NCBI GenBank assembly: GCA_963783125.1
Contig: CAWAMQ010000009.1
Location: 5,474-69,473, forward strand
DNA length: 64,000 nucleotides
Origin: an uncultured Chitinophagaceae bacterium
GTDB taxonomy: Bacteria > Bacteroidota > Bacteroidia > Chitinophagales > Chitinophagaceae
Reading direction: 5' to 3'
Of the stretch, positions 1,315 to 54,018 are shown piece after piece (position 1 is the stretch's first letter; the number at the start of each line of letters is the position of its first letter). The notes beneath the pieces were generated by a model. That model saw only the letters and a program-made list of their open reading frames with translations. It did no database searches and had not been told where the DNA came from. The translations under genes and the position numbers were made by a program.

Positions 1315-1569
1315 AGGAAATTAAAATTTTTTATTAAACAATTTGTTAGGGCTATGGAAGATCGGTCTTAGCCGTGGAAAAAACCTGAGCGGTGCAGGAG
1401 CAGAATGAACGAAGAGGCAGGATGAAATACTAATAGTTTATACCAGCCGTACAGTAAATCAACTTTTACTAAAGATTTTTATTTCGTAATTTTCATCTTC
1501 GCATATATTTTATTACCCTTGGCGGTTACGACTTTCAGGGATCTTCCGAACAATTAAAATTTGCCTGAT

Positions 1570-15283: not shown

Positions 15284-17728
15284 TTATTTCACCCGCGCTT
15301 CTTTGCTGATAAAATCACCGGTCTTTAGTATATAATCGCTATACTTCTGTTGGATGGATGCAGGTTCTTTTTCGCCATTGATGTACAATTCTCCTTTCGC
15401 AACAGCCACAGAAAATGTATTGTTGGTGATTAAATGATCATCTTCAAGTACGTTGATAAAATTTTGAACTTCTTTTTCCGCTACCGCACGATCTGAACCC
15501 GGTGGTGTAATCAACGTCCATTGGTTCCGGTTAACAGGCTCTTCCGCAGCGGCTTTGTTCATATTATTAAGCGCTTCAATTTTTTGTTGCCTTTCAGCAT
15601 TTATCTTGGATGCAAAATTATGCGCCAGGGTAGGAGCAATAACCAAAGAAACAATACTCATTAACTTAATAAGAATGTTCATGCTTGGCCCTGAAGTATC
15701 TTTAAAAGGATCACCAACGGTATCACCGGTAACTGAAGCTTTGTGCGGTTCAGAACCTTTATAGTGAGTTTCATTATTAATTAAAGCACCTTTTTCAAAA
15801 GATTTTTTTGCATTGTCCCATGCACCACCTGCGTTGTTCTGGAATATTCCCATCAAAACACCAGTTACAGTAGCCCCTGCCAAAAATCCACCTAACACCT
15901 GCGGGCCAAAAATAAAACCAATGATAACAGGAGAAAGCAGCGCAATGGCACCCGGTAACATCATTTTCCTGATGGAGGCATTGGTTGAAATGGCAACACA
16001 TTTTTCATATTCAGGTTTTCCTTTACCTTCCATAATTCCCGGAATGGTGCGGAACTGGCGGCGTACTTCTTCCACCATTGCCATGGCGGCTTCACCCACA
16101 GCACGAATGGCCAAAGAGGAAAAGATAAAAGGAATCATTGCACCAACAAATAAGCCGGCCAATACATCGGCGCGGTAAATATCAATACCATCAATTTTGG
16201 CAATGCCCACAAAGGCAGCAAACAAGGCGAGAGAAGTTAGTGCAGCGGAGGCGATCGCAAAACCCTTTCCTGTTGCAGCTGTAGTATTTCCTACTGCATC
16301 AAGAATGTCTGTTTTTTCACGTACATCTTTAGGTAATTCACACATTTCTGCAATTCCGCCCGCGTTATCAGCAATGGGCCCAAACGCGTCAATCGCCAAT
16401 TGCATAGCTGTTGTTGCCATCATACCCGCAGAAGCGATAGCCACGCCATATAAGCCCGCGGCATAATAAGAAAGGTAAATTCCGGAGGCCAAAACCAGGA
16501 TTGGAAATAGTGTGCTCTCCATTCCGACGGCAAGCCCGCCAATGATATTGGTAGCATGGCCTGTGGAAGACTGGCGAACGATTGTTAACACAGGCCTTTT
16601 TCCCATGGCAGTATAAAATTCTGTAATGAAACTGATCAGTGTTCCAACTACAAGACCAACTATTATAGCGCCATAAACACCATATTTTGTAAAATGATAA
16701 TTTCTGAGAACCATATCGGAATCAGGCAAAAGCCATGTTACCAAAAAGTAGGCTGCAATAGCCGTCAGGACGATGGCGCCCCAGTTTCCGAGGTTAAGCG
16801 CTTTTTGTACTACCGCAGTATGCAAACCTGATTTATCAGATATTTTTACAAAGAAAGTACCAATGATCGAGAAAAGAATTCCCATTGACGCGATAAGCAT
16901 CGGCAATAAAATCGGAGCCATTCCTCCAAAAGCATCCTGCGAAATCGTTTCTCTTCCCAAAACCATGGTAGCCAAAATAGTTGCTACATACGATCCGAAA
17001 AGATCAGCGCCCATTCCGGCCACATCACCTACGTTATCACCTACATTATCTGCGATAGTAGCAGGATTTCGCGGATCATCTTCCGGAATACCGGCTTCTA
17101 CTTTTCCTACGAGATCGGCACCCACATCAGCCGCTTTGGTATAGATACCGCCGCCTACTCTTGCAAACAACGCAATACTTTCTGATCCAAGACTAAAACC
17201 TGTAAGTATTTCAATGGTACGCTCCATCTCAAAGCTGTTGGCAGCCGCATGAGGAGCGAAAATAAATTTCAAAATGATATAAAGGCCTCCGAGACCTAAA
17301 ACGGCTAAACCTGTAACACCAAGTCCCATTACACTTCCGCCGGTAAAGGAAACTTTTAGCGCCTGGGCCAAACTTGTCCTTGCAGCCTGTGTGGTACGTA
17401 CGTTCGCTTTAGTAGCCACTTTCATACCGATGAAGCCGGCAAGGGCACTAAAAAAGCCACCACAAATAAATGAGATAGCAATGCTCCAGCTACTGTTGGC
17501 ACTGCTGTACCCCATGATGCCCAACAAAATCGCTGCGATAATAACGAAGTAAGATAGTATCTTCCATTCTGCTTTCAAAAACGCCATAGCGCCATCGGCG
17601 ATGTAGGTACTAATCTCTTTCATCCTTTCGTTTCCTGCGTCTTGTTTAGATACCCAGGAAAACTTTATAAAAGTGTAGAGCAACCCAACAATTCCCATCG
17701 CCGGTATTACATAAATCAAATTATCCAT
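15284..17728 (-). CDS. hppA: Membrane-bound ion-pumping pyrophosphatase, predicted K+-dependent H+-PPase, with C-terminal extension
   Basis: [49 protein letters not shown]; about 16 TM segments. Confidence 0.95.
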
Positions 17729-28983: not shown

Positions 28984-30411
28984 ATGCAACACGAAGCCAT
29001 TTCGGTTTTTGATATGTTTAAAATAGGAGTAGGGCCATCAAGTAGTCACACCCTTGGCCCATGGCGTGCTGCACAGTCTTTTTTAAAATCTCTGCTTGAT
29101 AATAATATCCTTGAGCAGGTAGTTTCAATGGAAATTTTACTGTACGGTTCGCTCGCCAAAACCGGTAAAGGACATGGCACCGACCTAGCAGTTCAACTCG
29201 GTTTGGCAGGAGAAGATCCTGTTACTTTTGATGTGAACCTTATTGATGACAAAATAACTCGTATAAGGTCAGAAAAAAAGATATTTCTAAACGGCAGCCA
29301 CCCGGTGATTTTTGATCCGCAGGAAGATATAGAATTTTTAAAGACCGAATCACTTCCTTATCATCCCAATGCGCTCACTTTTATTGCCGTATTGGAAAAT
29401 GATGAACACATTTCTGAAACCTATTATTCTATCGGCGGAGGCTTCGTAAAAAAAGAAGGCGAAGATTTCAACACTAACGAAGACGTAGTACTTCCTTTTC
29501 CTATAAATGACGCAGATGACCTGGCACATTGGTGTATGCAAACCGGGATGAACATCAGCGAAGTGGTTTTGGAAAATGAAAACTCGTGGCGTTCTGAAGA
29601 AGAAACGCGGGCCGGTATCCTGAATATCTGGAAAACGATGAGCGAATGTATTTACACCGGCTGCCACACCCAGGGGATTCTTCCGGGAGGCCTAAATGTA
29701 AAGAGACGCGCAGCCAACCTGAATAAAAAATTAATTGGCGGAAAGCCTTACACTGATTATAATTCATGGATCGATGTGATCAGGGAGGGAGGAAATAGTT
29801 TTAAATACACTCTTGATTGGGTAAGTTGTTTTGCCCTGGCGGTTAATGAACAAAACGCTGCCTTTGGCCGCGTGGTTACTTCGCCCACAAATGGCGCTGC
29901 GGGCGTTGTTCCGGCAGTGCTGGCTTATTACATTATTTTTTGTGACGGTGATAATGAAGATAAGATCATCCAGTTCTTAGCGACTGCATCCGAAGTGGGA
30001 TGCATCTTTAAAAAAGGAGCCACGATTTCTGCAGCCATGGGCGGATGCCAGGCGGAGATTGGTGTTTCATCTTCGATGGCTGCTGCAGCACTCACCGAAT
30101 GTATGGGCGGCACGCAAAGGCAAGCGTTGATGGCTGCCGAAATTGCAATGGAACATCATCTTGGTATGAGTTGCGATCCGATTTCCGGCCTGGTCCAGAT
30201 TCCATGCATAGAAAGGAACGCAATGGGCGCGGTAAAGGCGATAACAGCCAGCCAGCTTTCGCTGCAAAGTGCGCCTGACTTTGCAAGAGTCACTTTAGAC
30301 AACGTTATTAAAACCATGTGGGACACCGCAGTAGATATGAACAGTAAGTACAAAGAAACTTCCGATGGAGGTTTAGCGATAAATGTGCCTTTGGGATTAA
30401 GTGAATGTTAG
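28984..30411 (+). CDS. sdaA: L-serine ammonia-lyase (Fe-S dependent, single chain)
   Basis: [52 protein letters not shown]; start ATG 28984. Confidence 0.96.
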
Positions 30412-30518
30412 TTGATAAGGTGGGGTAGGAATTATGGTTTCGAGGTTTAGAAAGTTTAGAGGTTTAGACAGTAGACGAATAAATTACCGCGATTTTTATT
30501 TTCCTGTTTTACTGATCA

Positions 30519-30956
30519 TCACACACCATATTTCCTTTTGATATCGCGGTCTGTTTCTCTCGCTTTGATCGTTTCTCTTTTATCAAATGTCTTTTTCCCT
30601 TTGCCAAGACCGATCTCTATTTTGGCAAATCCGCTGCCTGAGAAAAATATCTTTAAAGGAATGATCGAATAGCCTTTCTCTTTTATTTTGTTTTCAAGCT
30701 TGCGCAATTCTTTTTTATGCAACAGCAATTTGCGCTCCTGCATCGGCTCATGATTAAAATGCGTACCAAAATTGTATTCAGAAATATGCAGGCTTTTTAC
30801 AAACAATTCTCCTTTATGAAAAAAACAATAGCTGTCGTTAAAACTGGCTTTGCCGGCACGCAGTGATTTTATTTCCGTTCCGGTCAACACCATACCGGCA
30901 ACGTATTTTGCTTCAAAATTATATTCGTAATATGCTTTTCGGTTTCTTAAATCCAT
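30519..30956 (-). CDS. smpB: SsrA-binding protein
   Basis: NRKAYYEY, AGMVLTGTEIKSLR, RKLLLHKKE, GKGKKTFDKRETIK. Confidence 0.97.
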   Translation of the reverse strand: MDLRNRKAYYEYNFEAKYVAGMVLTGTEIKSLRAGKASFNDSYCFFHKGELFVKSLHISEYNFGTHFNHEPMQERKLLLHKKELRKLENKIKEKGYSIIPLKIFFSGSGFAKIEIGLGKGKKTFDKRETIKARETDRDIKRKYGV

Positions 30957-30967
30957 AATAAAAAAAA

Positions 30968-30994
30968 CAGCAGGAATTGTAAAAGTTCCTGCTG
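30968..30994 (-). terminator. Intrinsic terminator after accD
   Basis: CAGCAGGAA-loop-TTCCTGCTG hairpin with an A tract on the left (U tract on the minus strand). Confidence 0.6.
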
Positions 30995-31014
30995 CAAAGT
31001 TTCGTTTTTTAAAA

Positions 31015-31926
31015 TTAATGACTGAATAAAATCAATAATTGCTTCAGCTTTTCCTTCAGGTCTTTCCTGGAAACAATAAAATCGAGAAACCCATGTTCCA
31101 ATAAAAATTCACTTCGTTGAAATCCCGGTGGCAAATCCTTCTTTATCGTTTCTTTTATCACGCGTGGTCCGGCAAAGCCAATAAGGGCGCCTGGTTCAGC
31201 CATTATCACATCACCCAACATTGCGAAAGATGCTGTCGTTCCTCCAAACGTTGGGTCTGTGCACAAGGAAAAATAAGGGATTTTTGCATCGGTAAGCAGT
31301 GACAACCGCCCCGAAGTTTTTGCCAGTTGCATCAGCGAGAAAGCGCTTTCCATCATTCTTGCCCCACCACTTTTATTAATGATCATAAAAGGTACCTTAC
31401 GTTTGATACAATAATCACACGCAAGCGAAATCTTTTCACCCATCACGCTGCCCAGGCTGCCGCCGATAAATTCAAAATCCATGCACGCTACCACGAGTTC
31501 CATCCCATCCACTTTCCCATGCCCGACAGTTATTGAATCGTGAATGTTGGATTTGGCATAAGTTTCTTCCAAACGTTGTGCGTAAGGCTTGAGGTCTACA
31601 AAACCAAGAAAATCCTTTGACTTAATATTACTGAAAAGCTCGATGTACTGGCCTTCATCAAAAATGATATCAAAATATTCAGCGCTTCCGATCCTGTGAT
31701 GGTATTCGCACTTGGGGCACACAAATAAACTTTCCCTCAATTCAGAAACAGTACATGTATAGCGGCATTGCGGGCACTTGGTCCACAAACCATCAGGAGC
31801 TTCCTTCTTATCTTTGGTTGAAGTGGTGATTCCTTTTTTAATTCGCCTGAACCAGCTTCGTTTCGTTTCTTCCGATTCACCTTCTTCGCCCGCAAGATTT
31901 GCATCGAAATCTTCTTCTTGTTTCAT
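31015..31926 (-). CDS. accD: Acetyl-CoA carboxylase carboxyltransferase beta subunit
   Basis: KCPQC...CPKC zinc finger, GGSLGSVMGEK, SGGARMME, GFAGPRVI. Confidence 0.97.
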   Translation of the reverse strand: MKQEEDFDANLAGEEGESEETKRSWFRRIKKGITTSTKDKKEAPDGLWTKCPQCRYTCTVSELRESLFVCPKCEYHHRIGSAEYFDIIFDEGQYIELFSNIKSKDFLGFVDLKPYAQRLEETYAKSNIHDSITVGHGKVDGMELVVACMDFEFIGGSLGSVMGEKISLACDYCIKRKVPFMIINKSGGARMMESAFSLMQLAKTSGRLSLLTDAKIPYFSLCTDPTFGGTTASFAMLGDVIMAEPGALIGFAGPRVIKETIKKDLPPGFQRSEFLLEHGFLDFIVSRKDLKEKLKQLLILFSH

Positions 31927-31953
31927 AAGTCTAATCTTTTATCACAAAAAAGC

Positions 31954-33009
31954 TTACGCCACTGTGATACTGTCATCCAAATATACATCCTGTGTGGCAT
32001 TCAACAATTCAACACCTTCATTAAATGGCCGTTGGAAAGCTTTTCTTCCCAAAATCAATCCCATGCCCCCGGCGCGTTTGTTGACAACAGCAGTTTCTAC
32101 AGCTTCAGCTAAATCCGCCGAACCCGCGCTTGCACCACCACTGTTGATCAATCCGATCTTTCCTGTATAACAATTCAATACCTGGTAACGGCAAAGATCT
32201 ATCGGGTGATCTGAACTCAGATTTTCGTAAACCAAAGGGGAGGTTTTACCAAATTTCACCGCATTGTATCCACCATTGTTGGTCGGCATTTTTTGTTTAA
32301 TGATATCTGCCTGTAAAGTTACGCCCAAATGATTGGCTTGCCCCGTTAAATCAGCACTCGTTGAATAATCAGTGCCGTTTACTTTGAAAGCGTCATTACG
32401 CAGGTAACACCACAAAATAGTACACATTCCCAACTCGTGAGCACGGGCAAATGCTTCGCTCACTTCCTGCAACTGGCGGGTACTTTCGTGGCTTCCCCAA
32501 TAAACGGTGGCACCTACACCTACAGCACCCATGTCATAAGCCGTTTCAACGGAACCAAACATAGTTTGGTCATATTTATTAGGATAACTTAATAATTCAT
32601 TGTGATTGATTTTTACAATAAAAGGAATTTTATGGGCATATTTCCTGCTTAAAATTCCTAATACGCCAAAAGTAGAAGCAACCCCGTTACAACCGCCTTC
32701 AATTGCCAGTTTTACAATATTTTCAGGATCGAAATACATAGGATTAGGAGCGAAAGAAGCGCCTGCACTGTGTTCAATTCCCTGGTCAACCGGGAAAATA
32801 GAACAATAGCCTGTTCCACCGAGTCTGCCGTGGTTCATCAGTTGCTGCATGCTTCCAACAACCCGGTTGTTCCGGTCGCTTTGCACAAAAATATCATCGA
32901 TGTACGTTGGAGAAGGTAACGTAAGGGTTGATTTGTCAATTTTACATTTGTAATTCAATAAGTCTTCTGCTTTGTCGCCTAAAATCTCTGCGATCTTTTT
33001 TGATGCCAT
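31954..33009 (-). CDS. fbaB: Class I fructose-bisphosphate aldolase (DhnA/FbaB type)
   Basis: [42 protein letters not shown]. Confidence 0.96.
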
Positions 33010-33030
33010 TGTTTAAGTTTTAATTTTCGG

Positions 33031-33038
33031 CAAAAATA
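33031..33038 (-). promoter_or_regulatory. -7 promoter box for fbaB-accD
   Basis: Minus-strand TATTTTTG 21 nt upstream of the fbaB ATG. Confidence 0.55.
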
Positions 33039-33232
33039 GGGAATTACGCGATTACCCCGTTTTTGGTTTAAAAAATAATAGATCATATTAAATAATACCT
33101 ATTGTTTTTAGAAAATCGTTGAGGATATTTAGCCAGGGAAATTCTGCCAATGAGTGTATGTAAGATGATAACTTTGGCGCTGAAGTTACTTTGTTCTCCT
33201 GCCTGTAAAAAAAACATTTACAGCCGGATTCG

Positions 33233-33901
33233 TCAATGCCGTTGGGTATCAGCCAAATTACCTGGGAGAGGTTTCGCGGAAAAAGCTTTCCTTTTGAAAG
33301 CCAGTGCTAACATCAGCATGGCAAGCGGCGCTGTAATTCCCCATGGAAAACCAAGGAAAAGTAATTTCTCTGAATAAACCGGATAAAAATAAACGAATGT
33401 AATCATGGGAGTAACAACAGCATTGGCTAAAAAAGAAATTCTGACCCATTTTTGAAAGCCGTGTTTTTCAAAAACAGGAAGAGCTATCAGCATTGCCAAT
33501 CCCATAAATATGTAGCCGAGTGCGTCAAAGTCCCAAAAAAGCGAATGTGGTGTTTGATCAAGAACACTGATTTCATCAGCAACACCCTTAAGCTTTGCAG
33601 GAATTACCGTTGCCAGTTGAACCACATAATTAGCAACAACAAATACCGAATAAATAATTGAAAAGATTAAAGCTCCGTGGCTCCAAAACTTCTTATCCGC
33701 CGGTGATAAATAGTGAAGGGCAAGTACTTCAAGAAGAAAAGGTATAACAATAAAAAGGGACGTTCCGTATATCAAAATTTCGTCCAGGGGAAAGGTAAAA
33801 ACTCCAATGATTTGCAACGTTTGAACAACCACGTAAGCTATCGTTGCGCCAAATGCTATAAGTCCTGACAAAAAGCCTGTTTTGTAAATCACTTCGTCCA
33901 T
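33233..33901 (-). CDS. Hypothetical multi-pass membrane protein
   Basis: 222 aa, about 6 TM helices, no recognised catalytic motif. Confidence 0.75.
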   Translation of the reverse strand: MDEVIYKTGFLSGLIAFGATIAYVVVQTLQIIGVFTFPLDEILIYGTSLFIVIPFLLEVLALHYLSPADKKFWSHGALIFSIIYSVFVVANYVVQLATVIPAKLKGVADEISVLDQTPHSLFWDFDALGYIFMGLAMLIALPVFEKHGFQKWVRISFLANAVVTPMITFVYFYPVYSEKLLFLGFPWGITAPLAMLMLALAFKRKAFSAKPLPGNLADTQRH

Positions 33902-34065
33902 CAGTTGGGAGATAATCTTTAAAACAAAGGTAAACGAGCGATAAATTTTAAAAGATGATTTTCGTCAGATGGTAGAACTATTGTGTGTCATTTTGTGTAA
34001 GAGGCCAAGATTAGTGTCATGGTCGGGAAACCTGCGCAATTGGATCAATATCCCCGTACGGATCG

Positions 34066-34569
34066 TCATGACCCTCGCACGAAATGACTAAGATAAATTG
34101 AGATAGATAATAGGAACAAAAATGATCCGGCCAAAATAATAACAATGTCCAATTTTTTAGTACTAATAAACTTATTGCCTATATCGTATAATTTCAGTCC
34201 AAGAAAACCTCCGAGCGTATTGGTAATTACATCGGTTATGTCGCTGGCCCCAATGGCAAAGATGTATTGAATCATTTCAGCAGCAAGACTAAAAGCCAGT
34301 ATAAAAACAAGCTTGCGAACAAAGCCTGTTTTTTTGAAATTAACACTTAAAAGCAAGCCGAAGGGAATAAAGAATAAACAATTATCTATGATCTCTCCGT
34401 AATTTATTTTTCCCCTTACGATTGAAGGAGCAGCAAATGGAATAAGGTTAAGGCTTCTATGGTGGTAATGAAGTACTGACGCAATATTGAATTTAAGTTT
34501 AAATAACACTAACCAGGTTAATACCACTAAATACACAGCCAGCAATCCCTTGAACCATATTTTTTTCAT
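34066..34569 (-). CDS. VanZ family membrane protein
   Basis: SLNLIPF, DNCLFFIPFGLL, AEMIQYIFAIGASDITDVITNTLGG; probable start ATG 34569. Confidence 0.88.
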   Translation of the reverse strand: MKKIWFKGLLAVYLVVLTWLVLFKLKFNIASVLHYHHRSLNLIPFAAPSIVRGKINYGEIIDNCLFFIPFGLLLSVNFKKTGFVRKLVFILAFSLAAEMIQYIFAIGASDITDVITNTLGGFLGLKLYDIGNKFISTKKLDIVIILAGSFLFLLSISIYLSHFVRGS

Positions 34570-34889
34570 ATCCTGATTTGAATGCAATAGTATCCGGCCG
34601 TTCTTTTCTCACAGGTAACAATTACTAAATAAAAATACCAAATAAAAGTTCATTTACTGTCTTCTTACTTAGAGGAATGTCGCGTACCAGAGACGTTCCC
34701 GCGGAAAAAGTCGTTGTTTAATTGTTGAGATATTAACTCGGGACATAATTTTATCATTACACTTCCCGAAACTAAATCGTGAATAGCTCGCATTTTTTAG
34801 ATTACTGTTAATGAATCATCGCCGTATCCCGCCGCGCTAACGGTCGGAGTGGAGGCATGGCTTCGGCAAAAAAACTCCTCTTATCAATT

Positions 34890-35531
34890 CTATATTTTAC
34901 CAAACAAACCTACAAATTCTCCATTCGTCAATTGTTTCATTTCACCAGTGTTGGTATTATATAGTTTACATGAGAACTGCAATTTTACCGATAGATAGTA
35001 ATCTATGGGGCTTTGTGAATCCTGTTCACTAATAATTTTGATGGTACTGCCGGTTTGATCGCCGGTGCCGCTGGAAGTATTCCATTCTGTGCCATTCTCA
35101 TCAATCCAGGTCACGATAAAGCCATCACCATTTTTATATGGATCATAGTCAGGGCCGGTAGTATAATTATAGCTTCCCGGCGTAAAATAATCATAGAACT
35201 GCTGGTCGGTAAGGGAAAGATAATTATGCAATATTCCTTTTGTGATATCCATGTAAGTTCTGTTGGCCCCATATTGGGAATTTGACGGGCTGATAGTTGC
35301 AGAAACGGTTACGTCGTCAGTTCCTCCCAGGGCAGAACCTGCTTCATAGCCATTGGTTTGAGTAACTGTTTGTGCATAGGCTGTACCGCCAATGGTTGCC
35401 TTAAAATAATAAGTAGACGTATCGGTTTTATTATTTTTCCCCTTTTTGCAACCCGAAAAAATGAATGAAGAAGAGAGAAGAATTGCAGAGAGAAATAAAA
35501 GCAGGGCGTTTTGATTTGTTTTGATTTTCAT
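34890..35531 (-). CDS. Hypothetical lipoprotein
   Basis: Lipobox FSGC followed by KKGK; Thr/Gly/Tyr-rich beta-type body. Confidence 0.8.
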   Translation of the reverse strand: MKIKTNQNALLLFLSAILLSSSFIFSGCKKGKNNKTDTSTYYFKATIGGTAYAQTVTQTNGYEAGSALGGTDDVTVSATISPSNSQYGANRTYMDITKGILHNYLSLTDQQFYDYFTPGSYNYTTGPDYDPYKNGDGFIVTWIDENGTEWNTSSGTGDQTGSTIKIISEQDSQSPIDYYLSVKLQFSCKLYNTNTGEMKQLTNGEFVGLFGKI

Positions 35532-35768
35532 TTTAAGCAGTTGTTTTTTATTTTAGCAATGGTATATGTTAGTGAGAGTGGGTAGCACCTATCTCATAAA
35601 GAAAGCGTTGGTAATTTAGGAGATAATTGCTTACGAAGTCGCTTGTCGCTCATTAACAAAAAACAAAGTAAATTAAAATTTTGATTAGTAAGATCATTTT
35701 TTTTAGAAAAAGGTAATTATTATTAAAAGAAAAAGTTACGGGGGTCACCGGCAGGGCACCAGTTGCGA

Positions 35769-36089
35769 GTGCTGAAGACTTAGACACAAAGCAATCGCCA
35801 ACAATATTTACAAAATAAAAACACCCAATAAAAGTAGGTTTACTTTTCAACCGCAAAGGTCGCAAAGATTTTACGCAATGCCCGCAAGGTGCTATTAGAT
35901 CGAAGAACCTTTGCGTTCCTGGCGCTTTCTTTGCGTGCATTGCGGTCCGGTTTTAACCGCCATGAATATTGTATAAATATGAAAATAAAAATATCAAATA
36001 AAAGTTGGTTTACTGCAACTATAGCCTACGTCTGGATTTGCTAAAGGTATAGTAACGAACAGTCACAGGTCAATAGACCTGCGCCAGTT
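35769..36089 (+). repeat. ~320-bp direct repeat, copy 1 (copy 2 at 36759-37077)
   Basis: Collinear match including an identical core TTTACTTTTCAACCGCAAAGGTCGCAAAGATTTTACGCAATGCCCGCAAGGTGCTATTAGAT. Confidence 0.9.
35849..35946. repeat. CGCAAAG-type REP-like inverted repeat (second copy 36838-36940)
   Basis: Left arm CCGCAAAGGTCGCAAAG...CGCAATG..CGCAAGG; right arm CCTTTGCG...CTTTGCGTGCATTGCGG. Confidence 0.7.
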
Positions 36090-36291
36090 GCGAGTGCCGA
36101 AGACTTAGCCGCAGGGCAATCACCAGCAACATTTGCACAATAAAATACCCAATAAAAGTTTGTTTACGGCGACTCTTAAAATTAAGTGCCGTTGGTCGGA
36201 AGACCAGCCGGCGGCACAACTCCCAAATGGATAACTTCAAACAACCGGAACACCCACAGAGGCAAAGTGCCGGAGATGTCCCTGGGAGAAA

Positions 36292-36717
36292 TTATTTTGT
36301 TACTCTTTTCATACCGTTTGTGATTCCGCCTTTAATCATATTTCCATATCCATCGTCAGGTAACAAGTAGGTGAACGAAAGCGCTAATTCATAATTCCTT
36401 TTTGCATTATCAGGATCGTTTAAATCTTCGTAGCATTTAGCTACGTTTAAATATAATGAAGGAAAAGTTCCTTTGATTGTGTCGTCATTTATTTTTAAAG
36501 CCCACTGTAAAGCTGTTACGTCCCATTTCAATTTGTCGGCTGCACTTTTTTGATGTCGGGCTACATAATGAGCGGCAGTAAATTTTTCAAAGTCATTTGT
36601 TGCCTCGTCCCATGCTTTCAGAAAGAGTTTGCTTGCTTCTTCTAATTTACCTTGTCCTTCCATGTCCATTCCCAGGGCACAGAGTTTAACTATTTGGTTG
36701 TTTGGATCGAATTCCAT
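36292..36717 (-). CDS. TPR-like helical protein
   Basis: 141 aa of helical repeats (EEASKLFLKAWDEA; SLYLNVAKCYEDLNDPDNAKRNYELAL). Confidence 0.82.
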   Translation of the reverse strand: MEFDPNNQIVKLCALGMDMEGQGKLEEASKLFLKAWDEATNDFEKFTAAHYVARHQKSAADKLKWDVTALQWALKINDDTIKGTFPSLYLNVAKCYEDLNDPDNAKRNYELALSFTYLLPDDGYGNMIKGGITNGMKRVTK

Positions 36718-36758
36718 TTTCTAATTATTTCGTCTTTTTTCCGGCGTTGTTGGTGTTC

Positions 36759-37077
36759 GTGCTGATGACTTAGACGCGGGCAATCACTAACAACATTTAC
36801 AAAATAAAAATACCTAATAAAAGTTGGTTTACTTTTCAACCGCAAAGGTCGCAAAGATTTTACGCAATGCCCGCAAGGTGCTATTAGATAGAAGAATCTT
36901 TGCGCTCCTGGCGCCTTCTTAGCGTGCTTTTCATTCCGGTCTTAACCCCCATGAATATTGCATAAATATGAAAATAAAAATATCAAATAAAAGCTTGTTT
37001 ACTGAATTTATAGCGTAGGTCTGGATTTCTAACGATATAGTGACGAATAGTTACAGGTCAAGAGACCTGCGCCAGTT
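36759..37077 (+). repeat. ~320-bp direct repeat, copy 2
   Basis: Homologous to 35769-36089 with scattered substitutions. Confidence 0.9.
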
Positions 37078-37147
37078 ATATATTGTATAAATATGAAAAT
37101 AAAAATATCAAATAAAAGTGGATTTACTATAGTCTTCTCTGAATTAA

Positions 37148-37178
37148 AAAACCGCTCCAAACATTGAAACGGTTTTTA
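37148..37178 (-). terminator. Intrinsic terminator after the amino acid permease
   Basis: AAAAACCG...CGGTTTTT hairpin about 20 nt past the stop codon. Confidence 0.5.
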
Positions 37179-37198
37179 TAAATATTAATTAGAGGCAA

Positions 37199-38761
37199 TT
37201 AAATAAGCGGTGGAATATCTTCCGGAACCTCATGGGCCTCTTCCCGGTCATCATAAGGATATTTATCCGGGTTTCTTAAGCGGCTGTGATGGCGGCTATA
37301 TCCGAAATAGATAATAAAACCGATGAGTAACCAACCAAAAAGACGTACCCAGTTGGTCCAACCCAATCCGAAGATCATCGCTGCGCAAACTACAATTCCT
37401 GCAATAGAAATTACTTTAAACGCAGGAACCCTGAAACCTCTTGGTATCTCTGGATGTTTTACACGCATGATCCATACGCCTGCACACACAAGGATGAAGG
37501 CAAACAAAGTTCCGATACTGGTCATATCACCCACAATATCGCCGGGAATAAAGGTGGCAAAAGACCCCACCAGTAAAAGGAAAATCAAATTTGATTTGTA
37601 AGGTGTTTTGAATTTCGGATGAATATCAGCGAAAACTTTTGGCACCAATCCATCTTTACTCATCGAATAAAATACCCTCGACTGTCCCATAAGCATTACG
37701 AGGATCACGGAAGAAAATCCCAGCAAGATCGCGATGGTGACCAGGTCGCTGAGCCACTGGAATGCCGGAACCCAAACACCACCAACCATTGAGCCACTCA
37801 TGTGCTCGATAGCATATACAACGGAAGCTTCACTACCGGTGGTTCTGAATTCTTCTACCGAGGCAACACCTGTAAGTACGTATGAAAATAAGATGTATAA
37901 AATAGTACAAATAACTAATGAACCTAAAATACCAATTGGCATATCCCTGCTTGGGTTTTTGGTTTCCTGCGCTGCAGTAGACACAGCATCGAAACCAATG
38001 AAGGCAAAGAAGACGACGCCCGCCGCGCCAAGTATTCCGAGAATTCCTCCGTAATGGTAGGAGATACCCATATGATCAGTATAGATAGTTGGTTCAGGTA
38101 TAAATGGAGTATGGTTCGCCGGCTTCATATATTGCCAGCCCACCACAATTACTACTATTACAATAGCCACTTTTAAAAGAACAATAATCCCGTTTACCAC
38201 GGCCGATTCCTGCATTCCCCTTATCAATAAAAGCGAAAGGATAATCACAATGCCAAGAGCGGGCAGGTTTACTATTCCATGATGCAGGTGATCCGTCGAG
38301 ACATTAAAAGGCGAATGGCACCATTCATACGGGACCTGGACATGAAAAATTTCAAGGAATTTATTAAAATATTCTGCCCATGCAATTGCCACAGTTGCCG
38401 CACCTACTCCATACTCCAGCACAAGATCCCAGCCGATGATCCACGCGATAAATTCGCCCATCGTGGCATAAGAATACGTATATGCACTACCGGCAATCGG
38501 GATCATAGAAGCAAATTCTGCATAGCATAATCCTGCAAAGGCGCACCCAAGCGATGCGATTACAAAACCGTAGGTTACAGAAGGACCGGCGTGTTGGGCG
38601 GCCGCCGCGGCGGTCCTTACAAACAAACCGGCGCCAATGATAGCGCCAATACCGAGGGCAATAAGATTTAAAGGCCCTAACGTTCTTTTTAATGTATTTT
38701 CAGATTCACCTGCTTCGTGCATTAAATGACTTACAGGCTTCGTGATAAATAGACTACTCAT
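37199..38761 (-). CDS. APC-family amino acid permease
   Basis: LGIGAIIGAGLFV, CYAEFASMIP.AGSAYTY, FFAFIGFDAVSTAAQETKNP. Confidence 0.95.
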   Translation of the reverse strand: MSSLFITKPVSHLMHEAGESENTLKRTLGPLNLIALGIGAIIGAGLFVRTAAAAAQHAGPSVTYGFVIASLGCAFAGLCYAEFASMIPIAGSAYTYSYATMGEFIAWIIGWDLVLEYGVGAATVAIAWAEYFNKFLEIFHVQVPYEWCHSPFNVSTDHLHHGIVNLPALGIVIILSLLLIRGMQESAVVNGIIVLLKVAIVIVVIVVGWQYMKPANHTPFIPEPTIYTDHMGISYHYGGILGILGAAGVVFFAFIGFDAVSTAAQETKNPSRDMPIGILGSLVICTILYILFSYVLTGVASVEEFRTTGSEASVVYAIEHMSGSMVGGVWVPAFQWLSDLVTIAILLGFSSVILVMLMGQSRVFYSMSKDGLVPKVFADIHPKFKTPYKSNLIFLLLVGSFATFIPGDIVGDMTSIGTLFAFILVCAGVWIMRVKHPEIPRGFRVPAFKVISIAGIVVCAAMIFGLGWTNWVRLFGWLLIGFIIYFGYSRHHSRLRNPDKYPYDDREEAHEVPEDIPPLI

Positions 38762-38937
38762 CGTATTTCTGCGGAGTTTTAATTTTTAAAAGATTGAAAA
38801 ATAAAGAAATAAAATTAAATCGTAAATAAGAAATTGTTTCGGACTAGTATTAAATAACCGGAAAAGTAAGGAATAAATTAAAAACGCGGGAAAAAGTTTT
38901 TCTATGGCAACCGGGTTTTGCTGGAACGCGGGGTTAA

Positions 38938-39936
38938 TCACACCAATAAAGCGCCGGTGGTATCAACGTTTTTATTATGCAATAATTGATGAACATTATT
39001 CAAAGTAACGTCAGTGATTTGTTCCAACGCTTCTTTGGTAAAGAAGGCCTGGTGGGCGGTTACCAATACATTCGGGAAACTCATTAAAAGTTGCAATGTG
39101 TCGTCGGCAATAATATTTTCAGACAGATCGCGGAAAAATATTTTTTCTTCCTGCTCGTACACATCAATCCCCAGGTAGCCCAATTGTTGTTCTTTAAGCG
39201 CTTCAATCACAGCGGGCGTGTCAATCAACCCACCGCGGCTTGTATTTATGAGCATCGCGCCTTTTTTCATGGTGGCAAGCGTTTTGGCATTGATGAGGTG
39301 GTGTGTCTGCGGCATCAACGGGCAATGAAGTGAAACTATATCGGACTGCTTTAAAACTTCATTAAGCGGCAAATATTGAACACCTTTTTGGATCAGGTGC
39401 GGACTTTGGTTTACATCATACGCAATCACCTGGCAACCCATTCCCTGCATGATCTTGCAAAACTCGGCACCAATATGACCTGTTCCGATCACACCTACGG
39501 TTTTACCTTTCATGGTAAAACCCAATAAACCATGCAATGAAAAATTTTGTTCCCTCACGCGGTTATAAGCCTTGTGCGTTTTTCGGTTCAGCGTAAGGAT
39601 CATAGCCAGCGCGTGCTCTGCAACAGCCTCGGGAGAATACGCGGGTACACGGCAAACTTTTATATGATGTGCTTTGGCGGCATCGAGATCCACGTTGTTA
39701 AAACCGGCACATCGTAATGCAATTACTTTTACGCCTTTTTGAGCCAACACTGCAATCACCTGTTTGTTCACTTTATCATTTACAAAAACGCAGATTGCGT
39801 CTGCAGGCTCAACGGCCTGCACAATATGCGGCCCAAGGTGGGTTTCAAAAAAAGTAAATTCAAAGTTGAATGTTGAATTACCCTTGATAAAAAATTCTTT
39901 GTCGTAAGGTTTTGCAGAAAAAAAAGTAATCCTCAT
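38938..39936 (-). CDS. ldhA: D-lactate dehydrogenase-like 2-hydroxyacid dehydrogenase
   Basis: LRCAGFNNVD, VPAYSPEAVAEH, GTGHIG, LINTSRG, DVYEQE, TAHQAFFT. Confidence 0.9.
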   Translation of the reverse strand: MRITFFSAKPYDKEFFIKGNSTFNFEFTFFETHLGPHIVQAVEPADAICVFVNDKVNKQVIAVLAQKGVKVIALRCAGFNNVDLDAAKAHHIKVCRVPAYSPEAVAEHALAMILTLNRKTHKAYNRVREQNFSLHGLLGFTMKGKTVGVIGTGHIGAEFCKIMQGMGCQVIAYDVNQSPHLIQKGVQYLPLNEVLKQSDIVSLHCPLMPQTHHLINAKTLATMKKGAMLINTSRGGLIDTPAVIEALKEQQLGYLGIDVYEQEEKIFFRDLSENIIADDTLQLLMSFPNVLVTAHQAFFTKEALEQITDVTLNNVHQLLHNKNVDTTGALLV

Positions 39937-39972
39937 CCGGTAAAGATAATTAAGCTTTTTATTCAGGGCGCA

Positions 39973-40485
39973 TTATGGATTTACTTCGGGATTGATGGTT
40001 GAAGTTTCTCCTGTCTGATCCCGTTTGGCGGTATTCGAAAGTAAAAAGGAAACAAAAGATCCTGCAGCTACATTTCCGAAAACAGCATCCATAAATAAAA
40101 TGAACATCAATGCATGACCGTTTTCCATTAATGCGGGCGCAGGCTTACCAAGTTCGGTGGCAGTTTGGCTGACGGTTGCATAGCCAACGGGCTTCATTAT
40201 CGCAAGAAGAATAAAAATGGCAACGCAGGAGAGCAATATTCCCATAACGGTGGTAATATGTCCGGCGGCAATCATCATTTTTGTCATTGCATTTTTGTTT
40301 CGTTTTTTATTGAAGTTTAAAATAAAAACTACAATTACAAGCGCAAAAGCCACATTGCCGATATAGAGAATATAAGTTTGGGCATAATTATCAATTCCAA
40401 GGAAAATACCTACGGAAACAAGATAAAGTATGGCTGCCACGATTGAATATTTTAGATAAGAAAGGATTTGGTCTTTAGTAAACAT
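39973..40485 (-). CDS. Hypothetical 4-TM membrane protein
   Basis: 170 aa, hydrophobic helices. Confidence 0.72.
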   Translation of the reverse strand: MFTKDQILSYLKYSIVAAILYLVSVGIFLGIDNYAQTYILYIGNVAFALVIVVFILNFNKKRNKNAMTKMMIAAGHITTVMGILLSCVAIFILLAIMKPVGYATVSQTATELGKPAPALMENGHALMFILFMDAVFGNVAAGSFVSFLLSNTAKRDQTGETSTINPEVNP

Positions 40486-40709
40486 GACGATATTTTTCAG
40501 GTTAAAAAATCTAATTAGCTACCCCGGCTGAGCAATTTCCTGGTGGGGGCCCCAACCGTAAATGGGTTAAACTCAATTTTTTTTGCAACAGAAATCGTGC
40601 TAATTTGTTCGTTTACTATATCTGCCGCCTTTTTAAAACTAAATCGTTGCATAAAATGCACTTATCGCAGTATTCCTTAGTTTTGGCAATTATCATCTGA
40701 CTGATTTTT

Positions 40710-42086
40710 ATGAATAAAAGAAAAAGTGTACTTCTCGTTTTTTTTGTCTTGACGATTGTAGCGATTTTTCACCTCATCGATATTTATAATTTCAATAGCC
40801 TGTCGCCACTATTTTTAAGAATATTAAGATGGCTGTTTATCGCCACCTTAGTTATATATGGCTTTTACAAAAAAAGTCTCACCACGTGGATCCTTGTGAG
40901 TATGGTGATCGGCGTAGAAGTGGGTTTGGATTTTCCTGCATTTGCAAAAGAACTTCGGGTGTTAAGCCAGATCTTTTTGCGGATGGTAAAAACGATCATA
41001 GCGCCCATTCTTTTTTCCACACTCGTGGTAGGTATTGCCGGCCATTCAGATTTAAAACAGGTAGGAAGAATGGGGTGGAAGTCTTTGGTGTATTTTGAAG
41101 TAGTTACCACCATCGCTTTATTTATAGGGCTTTTAGCCATCAATATTTCGCAGGCTGGTGTGGGAATACATATCCCGCCGGGCTTTCATGAAGAACTACC
41201 TGCAACCGTTCCTCAAACGTGGCAGGATATCGTGCTGCACATCTTCCCCGAGAACTTTGTGAAATCCATTTATAATGGCGATGTGCTGCCTATTGTTGTG
41301 TTCAGCGTCATCTTCGGGATAGGTCTTGCATTGGTAAAAGAAGAAAAACGTAAACCCATGCTGATGTTTTCTGAAAGTCTTGCTGAAACCATGTTTAAAT
41401 TCACCAACATCATCATGTATTTTGCGCCGATCGGCGTGGGAGCAGCCATCGCGTTTACGGTGGGTCACCTGGGCCTTGATATTTTGTATTCGTTGCTGAA
41501 GCTGTTGCTCACGCTCTATGCTTCCCTTTTGGTTTTTGTAGGGCTGGTATTTTTTTCAATCGCCTGGTTTTTAAAAATTCCTATTCGCCCCTTTATTAAG
41601 GCGGTGTCTGAGCCTGTGGCCATCGCCTTTGCCACAACCAGTTCAGAATCCGCGTTGCCTATTGCGATGGAAAATATGGAGAAGTTTGGTGTACCAAGAA
41701 AAATCGTTTCGTTCGTGTTGCCAACCGGTTATACTTTTAACCTTGATGGCACCACCTTGTACCTTTCACTGGCAAGTGTGTTTGTTGCTCAGGCTGCGGG
41801 AATACATATGTCGATAGGGGCACAATTGATAATGGGTTTTACATTAATGCTCACCAGCAAAGGCGTTGCCGGCGTACCACGCGCATCATTAGTAATTTTG
41901 CTGGGCACGGTCTCTTCTTTTGGTTTGCCTGTATGGCCGGTTCTTGCTGTTTTAGGAATAGACGAACTCATGGATATGGCACGCACTTCAGTAAATGTTA
42001 TAGGGAACACGCTGGCCAGTTGCGTGATAGCAAAATGGGAAGGCGAGTTTGACCAGGAAAAAGCATTGGCTTTTGAACCCGATTAG
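40710..42086 (+). CDS. Dicarboxylate/amino acid:cation symporter (GltP/DctA family)
   Basis: FATTSSESALP, LPTGYTFNLDGT, TSKGVAGVPR, MDMARTSVNVIGN. Confidence 0.95.
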   Translation: MNKRKSVLLVFFVLTIVAIFHLIDIYNFNSLSPLFLRILRWLFIATLVIYGFYKKSLTTWILVSMVIGVEVGLDFPAFAKELRVLSQIFLRMVKTIIAPILFSTLVVGIAGHSDLKQVGRMGWKSLVYFEVVTTIALFIGLLAINISQAGVGIHIPPGFHEELPATVPQTWQDIVLHIFPENFVKSIYNGDVLPIVVFSVIFGIGLALVKEEKRKPMLMFSESLAETMFKFTNIIMYFAPIGVGAAIAFTVGHLGLDILYSLLKLLLTLYASLLVFVGLVFFSIAWFLKIPIRPFIKAVSEPVAIAFATTSSESALPIAMENMEKFGVPRKIVSFVLPTGYTFNLDGTTLYLSLASVFVAQAAGIHMSIGAQLIMGFTLMLTSKGVAGVPRASLVILLGTVSSFGLPVWPVLAVLGIDELMDMARTSVNVIGNTLASCVIAKWEGEFDQEKALAFEPD

Positions 42087-47912: not shown

Positions 47913-47932
47913 ATAATATGTGTTCGCACAAA

Positions 47933-47959
47933 AAAGACGGTTATAAAAACCGTCCTTTT
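47933..47959. terminator. Bidirectional terminator
   Basis: AAAGACGGTT-loop-AACCGTCCTTTT between convergent genes. Confidence 0.65.
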
Positions 47960-47978
47960 CATTTTATGTGATTTTTTT

Positions 47979-53953: not shown

Positions 53954-54018
53954 GTTATCTAAAAATCAGAATAAAAATCTTCACAATTTGTTGGTTTACT
54001 ATAAGCAGATTCAAAAAA

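Follow-up and report, generated by a model that had tools for sequence, protein, structure and literature searches.

Much has been described of the interspersed repeats and gene-capture systems of Proteobacteria, which include repetitive extragenic palindromes (REPs) with bacterial interspersed mosaic elements (BIMEs), integrons, and Neisseria intergenic mosaic elements (NIMEs), and gene arrays are known from gut Bacteroidales as rAID arrays (for acquired interbacterial defence associated with a recombinase), but little has been described for soil Bacteroidota. NIMEs are intergenic arrays whose units are bounded by dRS3 repeats, present in hundreds of copies, and these repeats are points of integration and recombination. 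dRS3, an inverted repeat of 20 bp, serves a Piv/IS110-type enzyme. Minimal mobile elements are hotspots between conserved genes at which strains carry different genes. REP and BIME sequences, with the REP-associated tyrosine transposases (RAYTs), are known from Enterobacteria and Pseudomonas (PMC2817692, PMC3116915, PMC5581495), and rAID-1 arrays from Bacteroidales (bioRxiv 10.1101/471110; PMC12247911). Here we analyse a window of 64,000 nt from an uncultured soil Chitinophagaceae bacterium (GenBank assembly GCA_963783125.1, contig CAWAMQ010000009.1, positions 5,474 to 69,473), in which seven co-oriented copies of a short motif ending in TTTAC divide a small array of genes and hairpin elements. 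The motif acts as a hinge: DNA to its left and to its right is inherited independently, and homology ends at its edges. With a probability of roughly 0.58, we read it as an interspersed repeat at which gene modules recombine, and the array in the window as a small, partly duplicated instance.

A hinge motif limited to one clade

The genome under study (G000) is a 24-contig, 4.1-Mb assembly in which the window occupies C9:5474-69473. It was compared with the relatives G015, G016, G005, G009 and G024 and, at the permease gene that borders the array, with a third metagenome-assembled genome (MAG), L082. The pattern AAATAAAAAYAYCHAATAAAAG-N3-RTTTAC has seven plus-strand matches within 34627-37127, where shuffled sequences give an expectation of 0.00. 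Further motif copies in the window, at 1452-1484(-), ~48868, 53966-54000 and ~58275, show that it is not confined to the array. The consensus, CAAAATAAAAAT-N7-AAAAAGTTnGTTTACTG, is 32-35 nt long, AT-rich and asymmetric, and consists of two conserved blocks separated by a variable 7-nt spacer, with zero information content beyond ~35 nt. At a folding energy of 0 kcal/mol it is unstructured, with neither a hairpin nor dyad symmetry.

A profile built from the seven ends has ~130 matches in the genome, on most contigs. The exact 16-mer core occurs 56 times in G000 against 2 for the control, and the 15-mer core with one mismatch 136 times against 8. The same 15-mer search gave 156 copies in G015, 97 in G016, 86 in G005, 39 in G009 and 23 in G024, while in ~35 other genomes of the genus and order the core was found only at control level. 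High copy numbers of the motif are limited to this bacterium and the four sampled species nearest to it, and by FbaB identity the motif-rich genomes are its nearest relatives. The motif is found on over 120 metagenome contigs as well. The initial annotation had described the ends as a site that delimits a cassette-like array and had proposed to look for them in the genome and its relatives; the search found them in number, ~136 copies here and a similar abundance only in the four closest species, but as a clade-limited, genome-wide repeat of mostly solo copies behind core genes. A phage origin was discarded on a single IMG/VR match, as was a miniature inverted-repeat transposable element, the 35-mer having by eye neither terminal inverted repeats nor a target duplication.

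The hinge test compared 429 distinct motif instances, taken from G000, from G015 loci and from metagenome loci, by extending pairwise homology outward without gaps. Where a pair shared only its left flank (at least 30 nt), homology was lost 0-6 nt after TTTAC in 22 of 25 cases. Where only the right flank was shared, it was lost at or inside the motif in 25 of 27, 15 of them at the 5' edge (-33 to -30). Altogether 47 of 52 one-sided comparisons broke at or inside the motif, and in 24 pairs homology extended into both flanks. Families of left flank (X, Y, B-tail) combine in various ways with families of right flank (R-a, R-b, B, D). Neighbouring copies are also locally co-oriented: 21 pairs at most 3 kb apart have the same orientation and one the opposite, and beyond 6 kb the ratio is ~50:50. 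Arrays of G015 are co-oriented throughout (12/12, 8/8 and 5/5), though the intervening genes point both ways.

Motif-bounded DNA also differs between genomes. Between the aquaporin and the formate/nitrite transporter genes, G000 and G005 have one motif, while G015 has 4.7 kb between two direct copies, encoding a cupredoxin, YceI, DUF5777 and an extracytoplasmic function (ECF) sigma factor. At other solo sites, relatives have at least one extra gene where G000 has the motif alone. Several units are shared by G000 and G015 (Table 1), one of them from motif to motif; they sit in unrelated contexts, at identities above that of core DNA (73-85%). The insert of 4.7 kb and the motif-to-motif unit bear out the earlier expectation that the site borders variable cargo elsewhere.

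At the array itself, the initial annotation had named variation of cargo at the fbaB-permease locus among the points on which its proposal would stand or fall, and the core of the proposal withstands this test. Gene content differs among G000, G015, G016 and L082, and the difference starts exactly at the outermost motif. Homology with G015:C14 and G016:C132 runs from the permease gene through its terminator and stops at 37096, the outer edge of the last motif. The 3' end of the permease gene is one of a few conserved hotspots where co-oriented copies part gene-sized units that vary by genome. Past this anchor, G015 continues for at least 27 kb with other genes and eight motif copies in one orientation, and G016 has module X and a motif copy at the contig end; the order in L082 is permease, terminator, motif, TPR (tetratricopeptide repeat) gene, hairpin, motif, X. 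The TPR gene is bracketed by motif copies in three genomes, and in relatives the homologues of the membrane protein, VanZ, lipoprotein and TPR genes are found on different contigs. Beside the permease gene, a D-lactate dehydrogenase-like gene (window 38938-39936) is present in G016, and G015 has a different ORF (open reading frame) of 250 aa.

The other border behaves differently. The pair accD-fbaB is conserved throughout the genus, but in G016, G005 and G015 fbaB adjoins a homologue of G000 C6:112422 instead of the array, which makes fbaB a secondary neighbour, and the synteny breakpoint lies 70-100 nt upstream of fbaB (window 33010-33115 compared with L038-L040). In G000 the gene at C6:112422 borders another small motif array (C6:113540-115970), and one inversion between an array and the fbaB junction would explain both G000 arrangements. 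The placement of the array between fbaB and the permease gene, as first described, thus holds on the permease side, the conserved anchor, while fbaB was brought in by rearrangement.

Placement at gene 3' ends

Motif copies are mostly intergenic, placed in either orientation right behind the 3' ends of ORFs. Of 46 full copies, 12 are found between convergent genes, some filling the entire gap between two stop codons, and the full copies favour neither orientation with respect to the gene on either side. Intergenic DNA holds 704 copies of the heptamer AGTAAAC/GTTTACT, a density of 1.27/kb compared with 0.18/kb within genes; composition-matched 7-mers have 60-245 intergenic copies. It also keeps a fixed register with stop codons: the TAA of cAGTAAAC is the stop of 35 genes, and on the opposite strand the stop of 51 genes is one of the two TAAs of the A block (peaks at +22 and +27). 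Where solo sites are orthologous, conservation is higher in the motif than in the flanking intergenic DNA. Register and placement together identify the motif as a gene 3'-end element and make a promoter unlikely.

The proposal that each unit carries its own promoter is not supported: about a quarter of the copies lie in convergent gaps, nothing is conserved beyond 35 nt, and the distance to the TPR start varies, at ~30 nt in L082 and ~85 nt in G000, which has module X in the gap. Promoter boxes of the -33 TTTG / -7 TAnnTTTG kind and of ECF type were sought by eye on both strands and gave no consistent fit, and boxes at 19-21 nt, at a fixed distance and oriented with the gene, as for Bacteroidota sigma-A, were not seen. 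Genome-wide, the minimum free energy of the 60 nt on each side of the motif equals that of random intergenic DNA, giving no sign of an adjoining hairpin or terminator. Canonical terminators are present beside the motif at 37146-37177 and at window 47930-47960. Searches for a replichore bias gave only weak associations, at p=0.05 for GC skew and p=0.01 for local gene strand.

The window array, its modules and its cargo

Pattern searches with shuffled controls, window repeat comparison, ORFs, Pfam matches and folding reproduced much of the initial annotation: seven related TTTAC-ended sites in one orientation, unit lengths of 1186, 170, 154, 665, 170 and 125 bp between successive copies, VanZ, lipoprotein and TPR genes all on the minus strand, and palindromic elements in the short units (B and REP-D). 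The units proved real, but their order, given earlier as A0-[lipoprotein]-A1-B-C-D-A2-[TPR]-A3-B-C-D-C, is replaced by one that allows for duplication: motif / lipoprotein / X1 / B1 / C1+X2 / D+TPR+X3 / B2 / C2+B-tail (Table 1). The stretches 35756-36089 and 36745-37077 are direct repeats, ~90% identical, with a period of 989 bp, and place one copy of an [X-B-C] block of ~325 bp on each side of the TPR gene, so that the seven motif copies do not represent seven independent events. A membrane protein gene between fbaB and VanZ, omitted from the earlier description, has homologues in other genomic contexts in relatives. The VanZ homologue of G015 (C3:94053-94645, 82%) has the same motif at its upstream side, and a homologue of the lipoprotein gene lies at a different location in G005. 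Array G+C is 0.37-0.40 (genome mean 0.394). An Rfam scan of window positions 30000-42000 (E<=1) gave no relevant match.

Table 1. Coordinates of features in the window array, of motif copies elsewhere in the window, and of related units and elements. Positions without a contig are those of the window.
Feature	Position	Strand	Remarks
Solo motif copy	1452-1484 (pattern match 1454-1484)	-	Pattern search
Membrane protein gene, 222 aa	33233-33901	-	No Pfam match; first non-syntenic gene after fbaB
VanZ-family cargo gene	34066-34587	-	Pfam VanZ, 4e-23
Hinge motif copy 1	34627-34657	+	
R-a hairpin module (GGAATGTC..GACGTTCC)	34674-34699	+	Directly 3' of motif copy 1
Lipoprotein cargo gene, 213 aa	34890-35531	-	Signal peptide then Cys; no Pfam match
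X1 hairpin module and motif copy 2 (35813-35843)	35756-35843	+	Fold z -2.7
B1 and motif copy 3 (35983-36013)	35844-36013	+	Long imperfect hairpin, CGCAAAG-rich
C1 module	36014-36087	+	REP-C at its end (36064-36087)
X2 module and motif copy 4 (36137-36167)	36081-36167	+	Motif with 3 mismatches
D module	36168-36266	+	REP-D at 36186-36214
TPR cargo gene, 141 aa	36292-36717	-	Pfam
X3 module and motif copy 5 (36802-36832)	36745-36832	+	
B2 and motif copy 6 (36972-37002)	36833-37002	+	92% identical to B1
C2 module	37003-37079	+	REP-C at 37052-37075
B-tail and motif copy 7 (37097-37127)	37080-37127	+	Anchor copy
Hairpin then T run	37146-37177	.	Likely intrinsic terminator of permease gene; conserved anchor; same arrangement in L082
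Amino-acid permease gene	37199-38761	-	3' end is the conserved array anchor
Degenerate solo motif copy	53966-54000	+	G015: 2.9-kb GH95 gene ~25 nt from orthologous copy
Shared TPR unit	36267-36826 = G015:C3:95603-96164		94.7% identity
Shared unit	G015 C3:89050-90747 = G000 C6:114211-115970		Motif to motif; 88.5%
Shared unit	G015 C3:79931-81554 = G000 C8		91.3%
Shared unit	G015 C14:205988-208041 = G000 C10		92.8%
TPR-Arr fusion	L053:14716-15459 (G015:C3:94716-95459); G000 C24:431-1175		
~57-nt element	L053:14620-14710, 16160-16225 = G015:C3:94620-94710, 96160-96225		

Several modules recur at fixed edges of the motif. Module X is a hairpin of ~55 nt that always abuts the A-rich edge (here, in G015, in L082 and at C8:181824), and the homology of X2 to X1 and X3 stops directly after GTTTAC; the R-a hairpin lies at the GTTTAC edge of motif copies in G015 and L082 too, and the tail of module D is also seen in G015. 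The hairpin of module B folds at -25.8 kcal/mol (z -3.1), and REP-D has a z of -2.2. With B, C, D, X and R-a around the motif, the intergenic DNA is a hairpin mosaic around an unstructured motif. BIMEs are built as mosaics in much the same way (PMC2817692). The X stem (35756-35812, 36081-36136, 36745-36801; also G015 and L082) has apparent compensatory changes, GTTGCCGGT/ACCGGCAAC against GTTGTTGGT/ACTAACAAC, which hint at a selected DNA or RNA structure.

Two of the palindromes are associated with RAYT genes. REP-D, with 10 copies in the genome, flanks in inverted orientation two tandem Y1 (HUH) RAYT genes at G000 C2:558-1960, whose Pfam Y1_Tnp scores are above the cut-off; a unit of REP-D and motif at C2:1114-1184 lies between two TTTACTG sequences. 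The second of the tandem genes is frameshifted, and inverted REP-D hairpins stand around each (C2:500-2200), the gene at C2:558-1082 included. REP-C (7 copies) flanks, as inverted pairs, a single-copy RAYT-like gene at C1:622710-623270 (region C1:622630-623340), and a third, single-copy RAYT gene at C8:66893-67438 has its own inverted family, REP-E (region C8:66830-67505).

Small elements insert into or against the motif. In G015, an element of ~57 nt (CCTGCCCGAATTCC...GGTCAGGCGG) interrupts two copies of the motif at one and the same point, which lies between AAAAGTTG and GTTTACTG, the latter on the GTTTAC side. Four identical 1.37-kb copies of an IS110-family insertion sequence (IS) are found in G015 (C3:10863-11885, 82056-83078 and 106644-107666; C12:347476-348498), two duplicated ones inside the A-rich block of the motif and one ~47 nt beside it; their left flanks are T/C-rich (TTTCTTTTCC).

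Larger arrays, of 30-45 kb, occur in one relative. At G015:C3:64-108 kb, twelve co-oriented motif copies have genes on both strands between them, and the array cargo of this genome includes an OprB porin, AraC, an FMN reductase (FMN_red), a Na/Ca exchanger, a TPR-Arr fusion, DUF2784, PEMT, DUF6064, Crp, YceI, SnoaL, a beta-lactamase, thioredoxin, IS110 and a group II intron reverse transcriptase. In other genera the homologues of TPR are without the motif, which therefore belongs to the host genome and not to the gene.

Some of the cargo proteins are informative in themselves. The 141-aa TPR protein has homologues at 60-82% identity that are patchy across Bacteroidota and occur also in Acidobacteriota, Spirochaetes and Nostoc MAGs, a distribution that suggests frequent horizontal transfer. 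A fusion protein of 247 aa joins a TPR part homologous to the 141-aa protein to a rifampin ADP-ribosyltransferase domain (Arr-ms, 1.6e-45), and the existence of this fusion means that the stand-alone TPR protein may be an Arr-associated module. The serine beta-lactamase-family gene of a G015 array is split into ORFs of 143 and 448 aa (L055:10167-11976 = G015:C14:206167-207976).

Explanations and known systems

Under the reading we prefer, of an interspersed repeat at which gene modules recombine, recombination of the Campbell type between motif copies would bring units in, remove them and move them, so that an inserted unit would have a motif copy on both sides and its loss would leave only one. 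We lean slightly towards general or short-homology recombination of the host, acting on ~32 bp of identity, because no recombinase adjoins the arrays or tracks the clade; a trans-acting enzyme is almost as likely. The primary function of the motif, and the one that conserves it, would probably be protein binding to phased A-tracts at gene ends. The array in the window comprises three cargo units (VanZ, lipoprotein, TPR) with hairpin elements lodged at both motif edges, and fbaB was placed beside it by a later rearrangement.

Several points weigh against this reading. Imperfect identity over 32 bp suits RecA poorly, and homologous recombination alone leaves the abundance, conservation and strict local co-orientation of the motif unexplained. 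Around the 4.7-kb insert of G015, the direct repeat runs ~30 nt past the motif into the aquaporin gene; some motif-adjacent indels have no second copy, as with the G015 GH95 gene 25 nt away; and in one pair of recurring units (p2) the motif is present at one end in only one genome. The pairs behind the 47 of 52 breaks are not independent, as orthologues and families are included, and the breakpoint counts cover motif-bearing sites only, in genomes where indels are common anyway (~3 per 20 kb). All genomes are draft MAGs with arrays often at contig ends, and genes were called crudely, as ATG ORFs of at least 80 aa. As to an enzyme, none emerged: the tyrosine recombinases lie on other contigs, and neither Y1/RAYT nor IS110 genes follow the clade, the former being present in 29 of 31 congeneric genomes however abundant the motif is in them, and the IS110 element from a G015 motif copy being absent from G005, G009 and G016.

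A dedicated enzyme is nevertheless the core of two alternatives, the second of them the initial proposal of a gene-capture array. What survives of that proposal are the variable cargo units and the breakpoints at the site; an array-specific site with promoters in its units and a recombinase is not supported. No recombinase was found beside any array examined (the window and the G015 arrays), and the one that was expected to be encoded elsewhere has no candidate that adjoins the array or tracks the motif-rich clade, G000 having only two PF00589 matches, at C10:135885 and C1:99462, with the window on C9. The first alternative, a tentative possibility, is a 'distributed integron' in which ~140 chromosomal docking sites, asymmetric, 32 bp long and at gene 3' ends, serve a putative trans-acting enzyme that would insert, excise and exchange cassettes and hairpins, with hotspot arrays reaching at least 45 kb. 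The other, which we consider unlikely, is dedicated site-specific capture akin to integrons or rAID, with circular cassettes, a recombinase encoded elsewhere, a fixed point near GTTTAC, and the ~140 solo copies as secondary docking sites. Such capture would fit the sharp breakpoints at the motif edges, the strict co-orientation of arrays whatever the orientation of genes, the two conserved blocks with a variable 7-nt spacer, the recurrence of motif-to-motif units in new contexts at raised identity, and the single motif left where relatives carry genes; cargo that is small, varied and in part resistance-like (VanZ, an Arr fusion, a beta-lactamase) is likewise reminiscent of integron cassettes. 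It is at odds with the lack of a recombinase beside the arrays examined, neither PF00589 gene being near the window array, with a motif that has no dyad or hairpin, unlike the sites of tyrosine and serine recombinases and attC, with the many solo copies that lie behind core genes both ways and are conserved at orthologous positions, and with adjacent indels that lack a second copy.

At the opposite pole, the motif could be a purely cis-acting signal of gene ends, such as a nucleoid protein site, an insulator, an unconventional terminator or an uptake signal, with recombination incidental and its survivors falling in 3' intergenic DNA. Tight, orientation-independent placement behind stops, even in otherwise empty convergent gaps, and conservation above the surrounding intergenic DNA at orthologous sites both agree with this. 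A core with phased A/T tracts and restriction to one clade may also recall uptake signal sequences such as those of Haemophilus. As a complete account it is quite improbable: breakpoints are confined to 32 nt and not spread over the flanks, local co-orientation is 21:1, inserts are bracketed by direct copies, without a hairpin the motif is no canonical terminator, terminators of that kind do lie next to it, and the clade-specific rise of ~140 sites is hard to square with a general housekeeping signal.

Single-strand transposition by HUH enzymes (Y1, RAYT, IS200/IS605-like), in which hairpin units that each end in GTTTAC would be pasted 3' of TTAC and arrays would grow by accretion, is very improbable. 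IS608 inserts 3' of TTAC, and here the junction lies just 3' of TTTAC (0-3 nt); the short units (B, C, D, X) form hairpins, RAYT genes of this genome are flanked by REP-C and REP-D, and the unit of REP-D and motif on C2 lies between a TTTACTG pair. Yet Y1 genes are present genus-wide regardless of motif abundance, the two REPs have few copies, hairpins are not enriched beside the motif across the genome, a strand bias over the replichores is lacking, the motif lacks a hairpin, and no pair of subterminal hairpins can be recognized in the multi-kb cargo units. Finally, a single local tandem duplication that then decayed, without broader significance, is barely credible. The 989-bp-period repeats around the TPR gene do account for four or five of the seven copies, but the genome has ~136, the motif occurs in four other species, cargo at the same anchor differs between genomes, and X, B-tail and motif recur with other partners in G015 and in metagenomes. 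Genome-wide copies and the hinge test refute duplication as a full explanation; it holds only for the [X-B-C] block.

One short, unstructured motif marks gene ends genome-wide and sits at the joints where accessory genes, including resistance-looking ones (VanZ, TPR-Arr fusion, beta-lactamase), are reassorted between species. If a dedicated enzyme exists, this would be a new cassette-exchange system; if none does, it would be a natural case of a short repeat serving as portable homology that structures an accessory genome. In either case, the motif offers a sequence handle for locating variable islands and predicting points of rearrangement in these MAGs, and it explains assembly breaks at these places.

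Of the known systems, REP and BIME sequences share with the motif that they are short, extragenic, clade-specific, present in more than 100 copies, situated behind genes both ways, arranged in mosaic clusters and targeted by other mobile elements; true REP hairpins and RAYT genes with inverted REPs are present in this genome, and REP-C and REP-D in the array itself. Unlike those GC-rich stem-loop palindromes, the motif is AT-rich and unstructured, overlaps stops in a fixed register and bounds variable multi-gene arrays of 30-45 kb, while true REPs number only 7-10 copies here and RAYT genes do not track the motif. On insertion of the IS200/IS605 (PATE) type the observations point both ways: the junction is 0-3 nt past TTTAC and short units contain hairpins, but hairpins are not enriched genome-wide and Y1 gene content shows no link. 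NIMEs and minimal mobile elements have in common with these arrays repeat-bounded intergenic units and hotspots with differing genes, but unlike dRS3 the motif is an asymmetric one, and the distribution of IS110 genes does not follow the clade. Arrays of rAID-1 likewise occur in Bacteroidota and have short, mostly co-oriented accessory genes, a conserved intergenic repeat between them, and content that varies among strains. They differ in that no XerD-like recombinase heads the array here, the anchor being the permease gene; Pfam matches in the cargo of the window and the G015 arrays include no immunity families, the repeat is also dispersed genome-wide behind core genes, and array G+C equals the genome mean where rAID-1 is low in G+C. 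Integrons offer co-oriented sites, one per unit, that delimit gene-sized units varying between genomes, with stops often inside the site, small, diverse and partly resistance-like cargo, and units that recur in other arrays. Here, however, there is no intI and sites are scattered over the whole chromosome; attC is an imperfect palindrome of 57-141 nt that forms a hairpin (core RYYYAAC...GTTRRRY), whereas the motif has 32 nt and is unfolded, GTTTAC/GTAAAC being one base off either core, in keeping with the earlier statement that the ends match neither integron attC nor CRISPR. The motif comes closest to a REP/BIME or NIME mosaic joined to arrays of integron or rAID type, but it falls short of what defines each of these: intI, attC, a XerD-like gene and immunity cargo are absent, and the motif is no palindrome.

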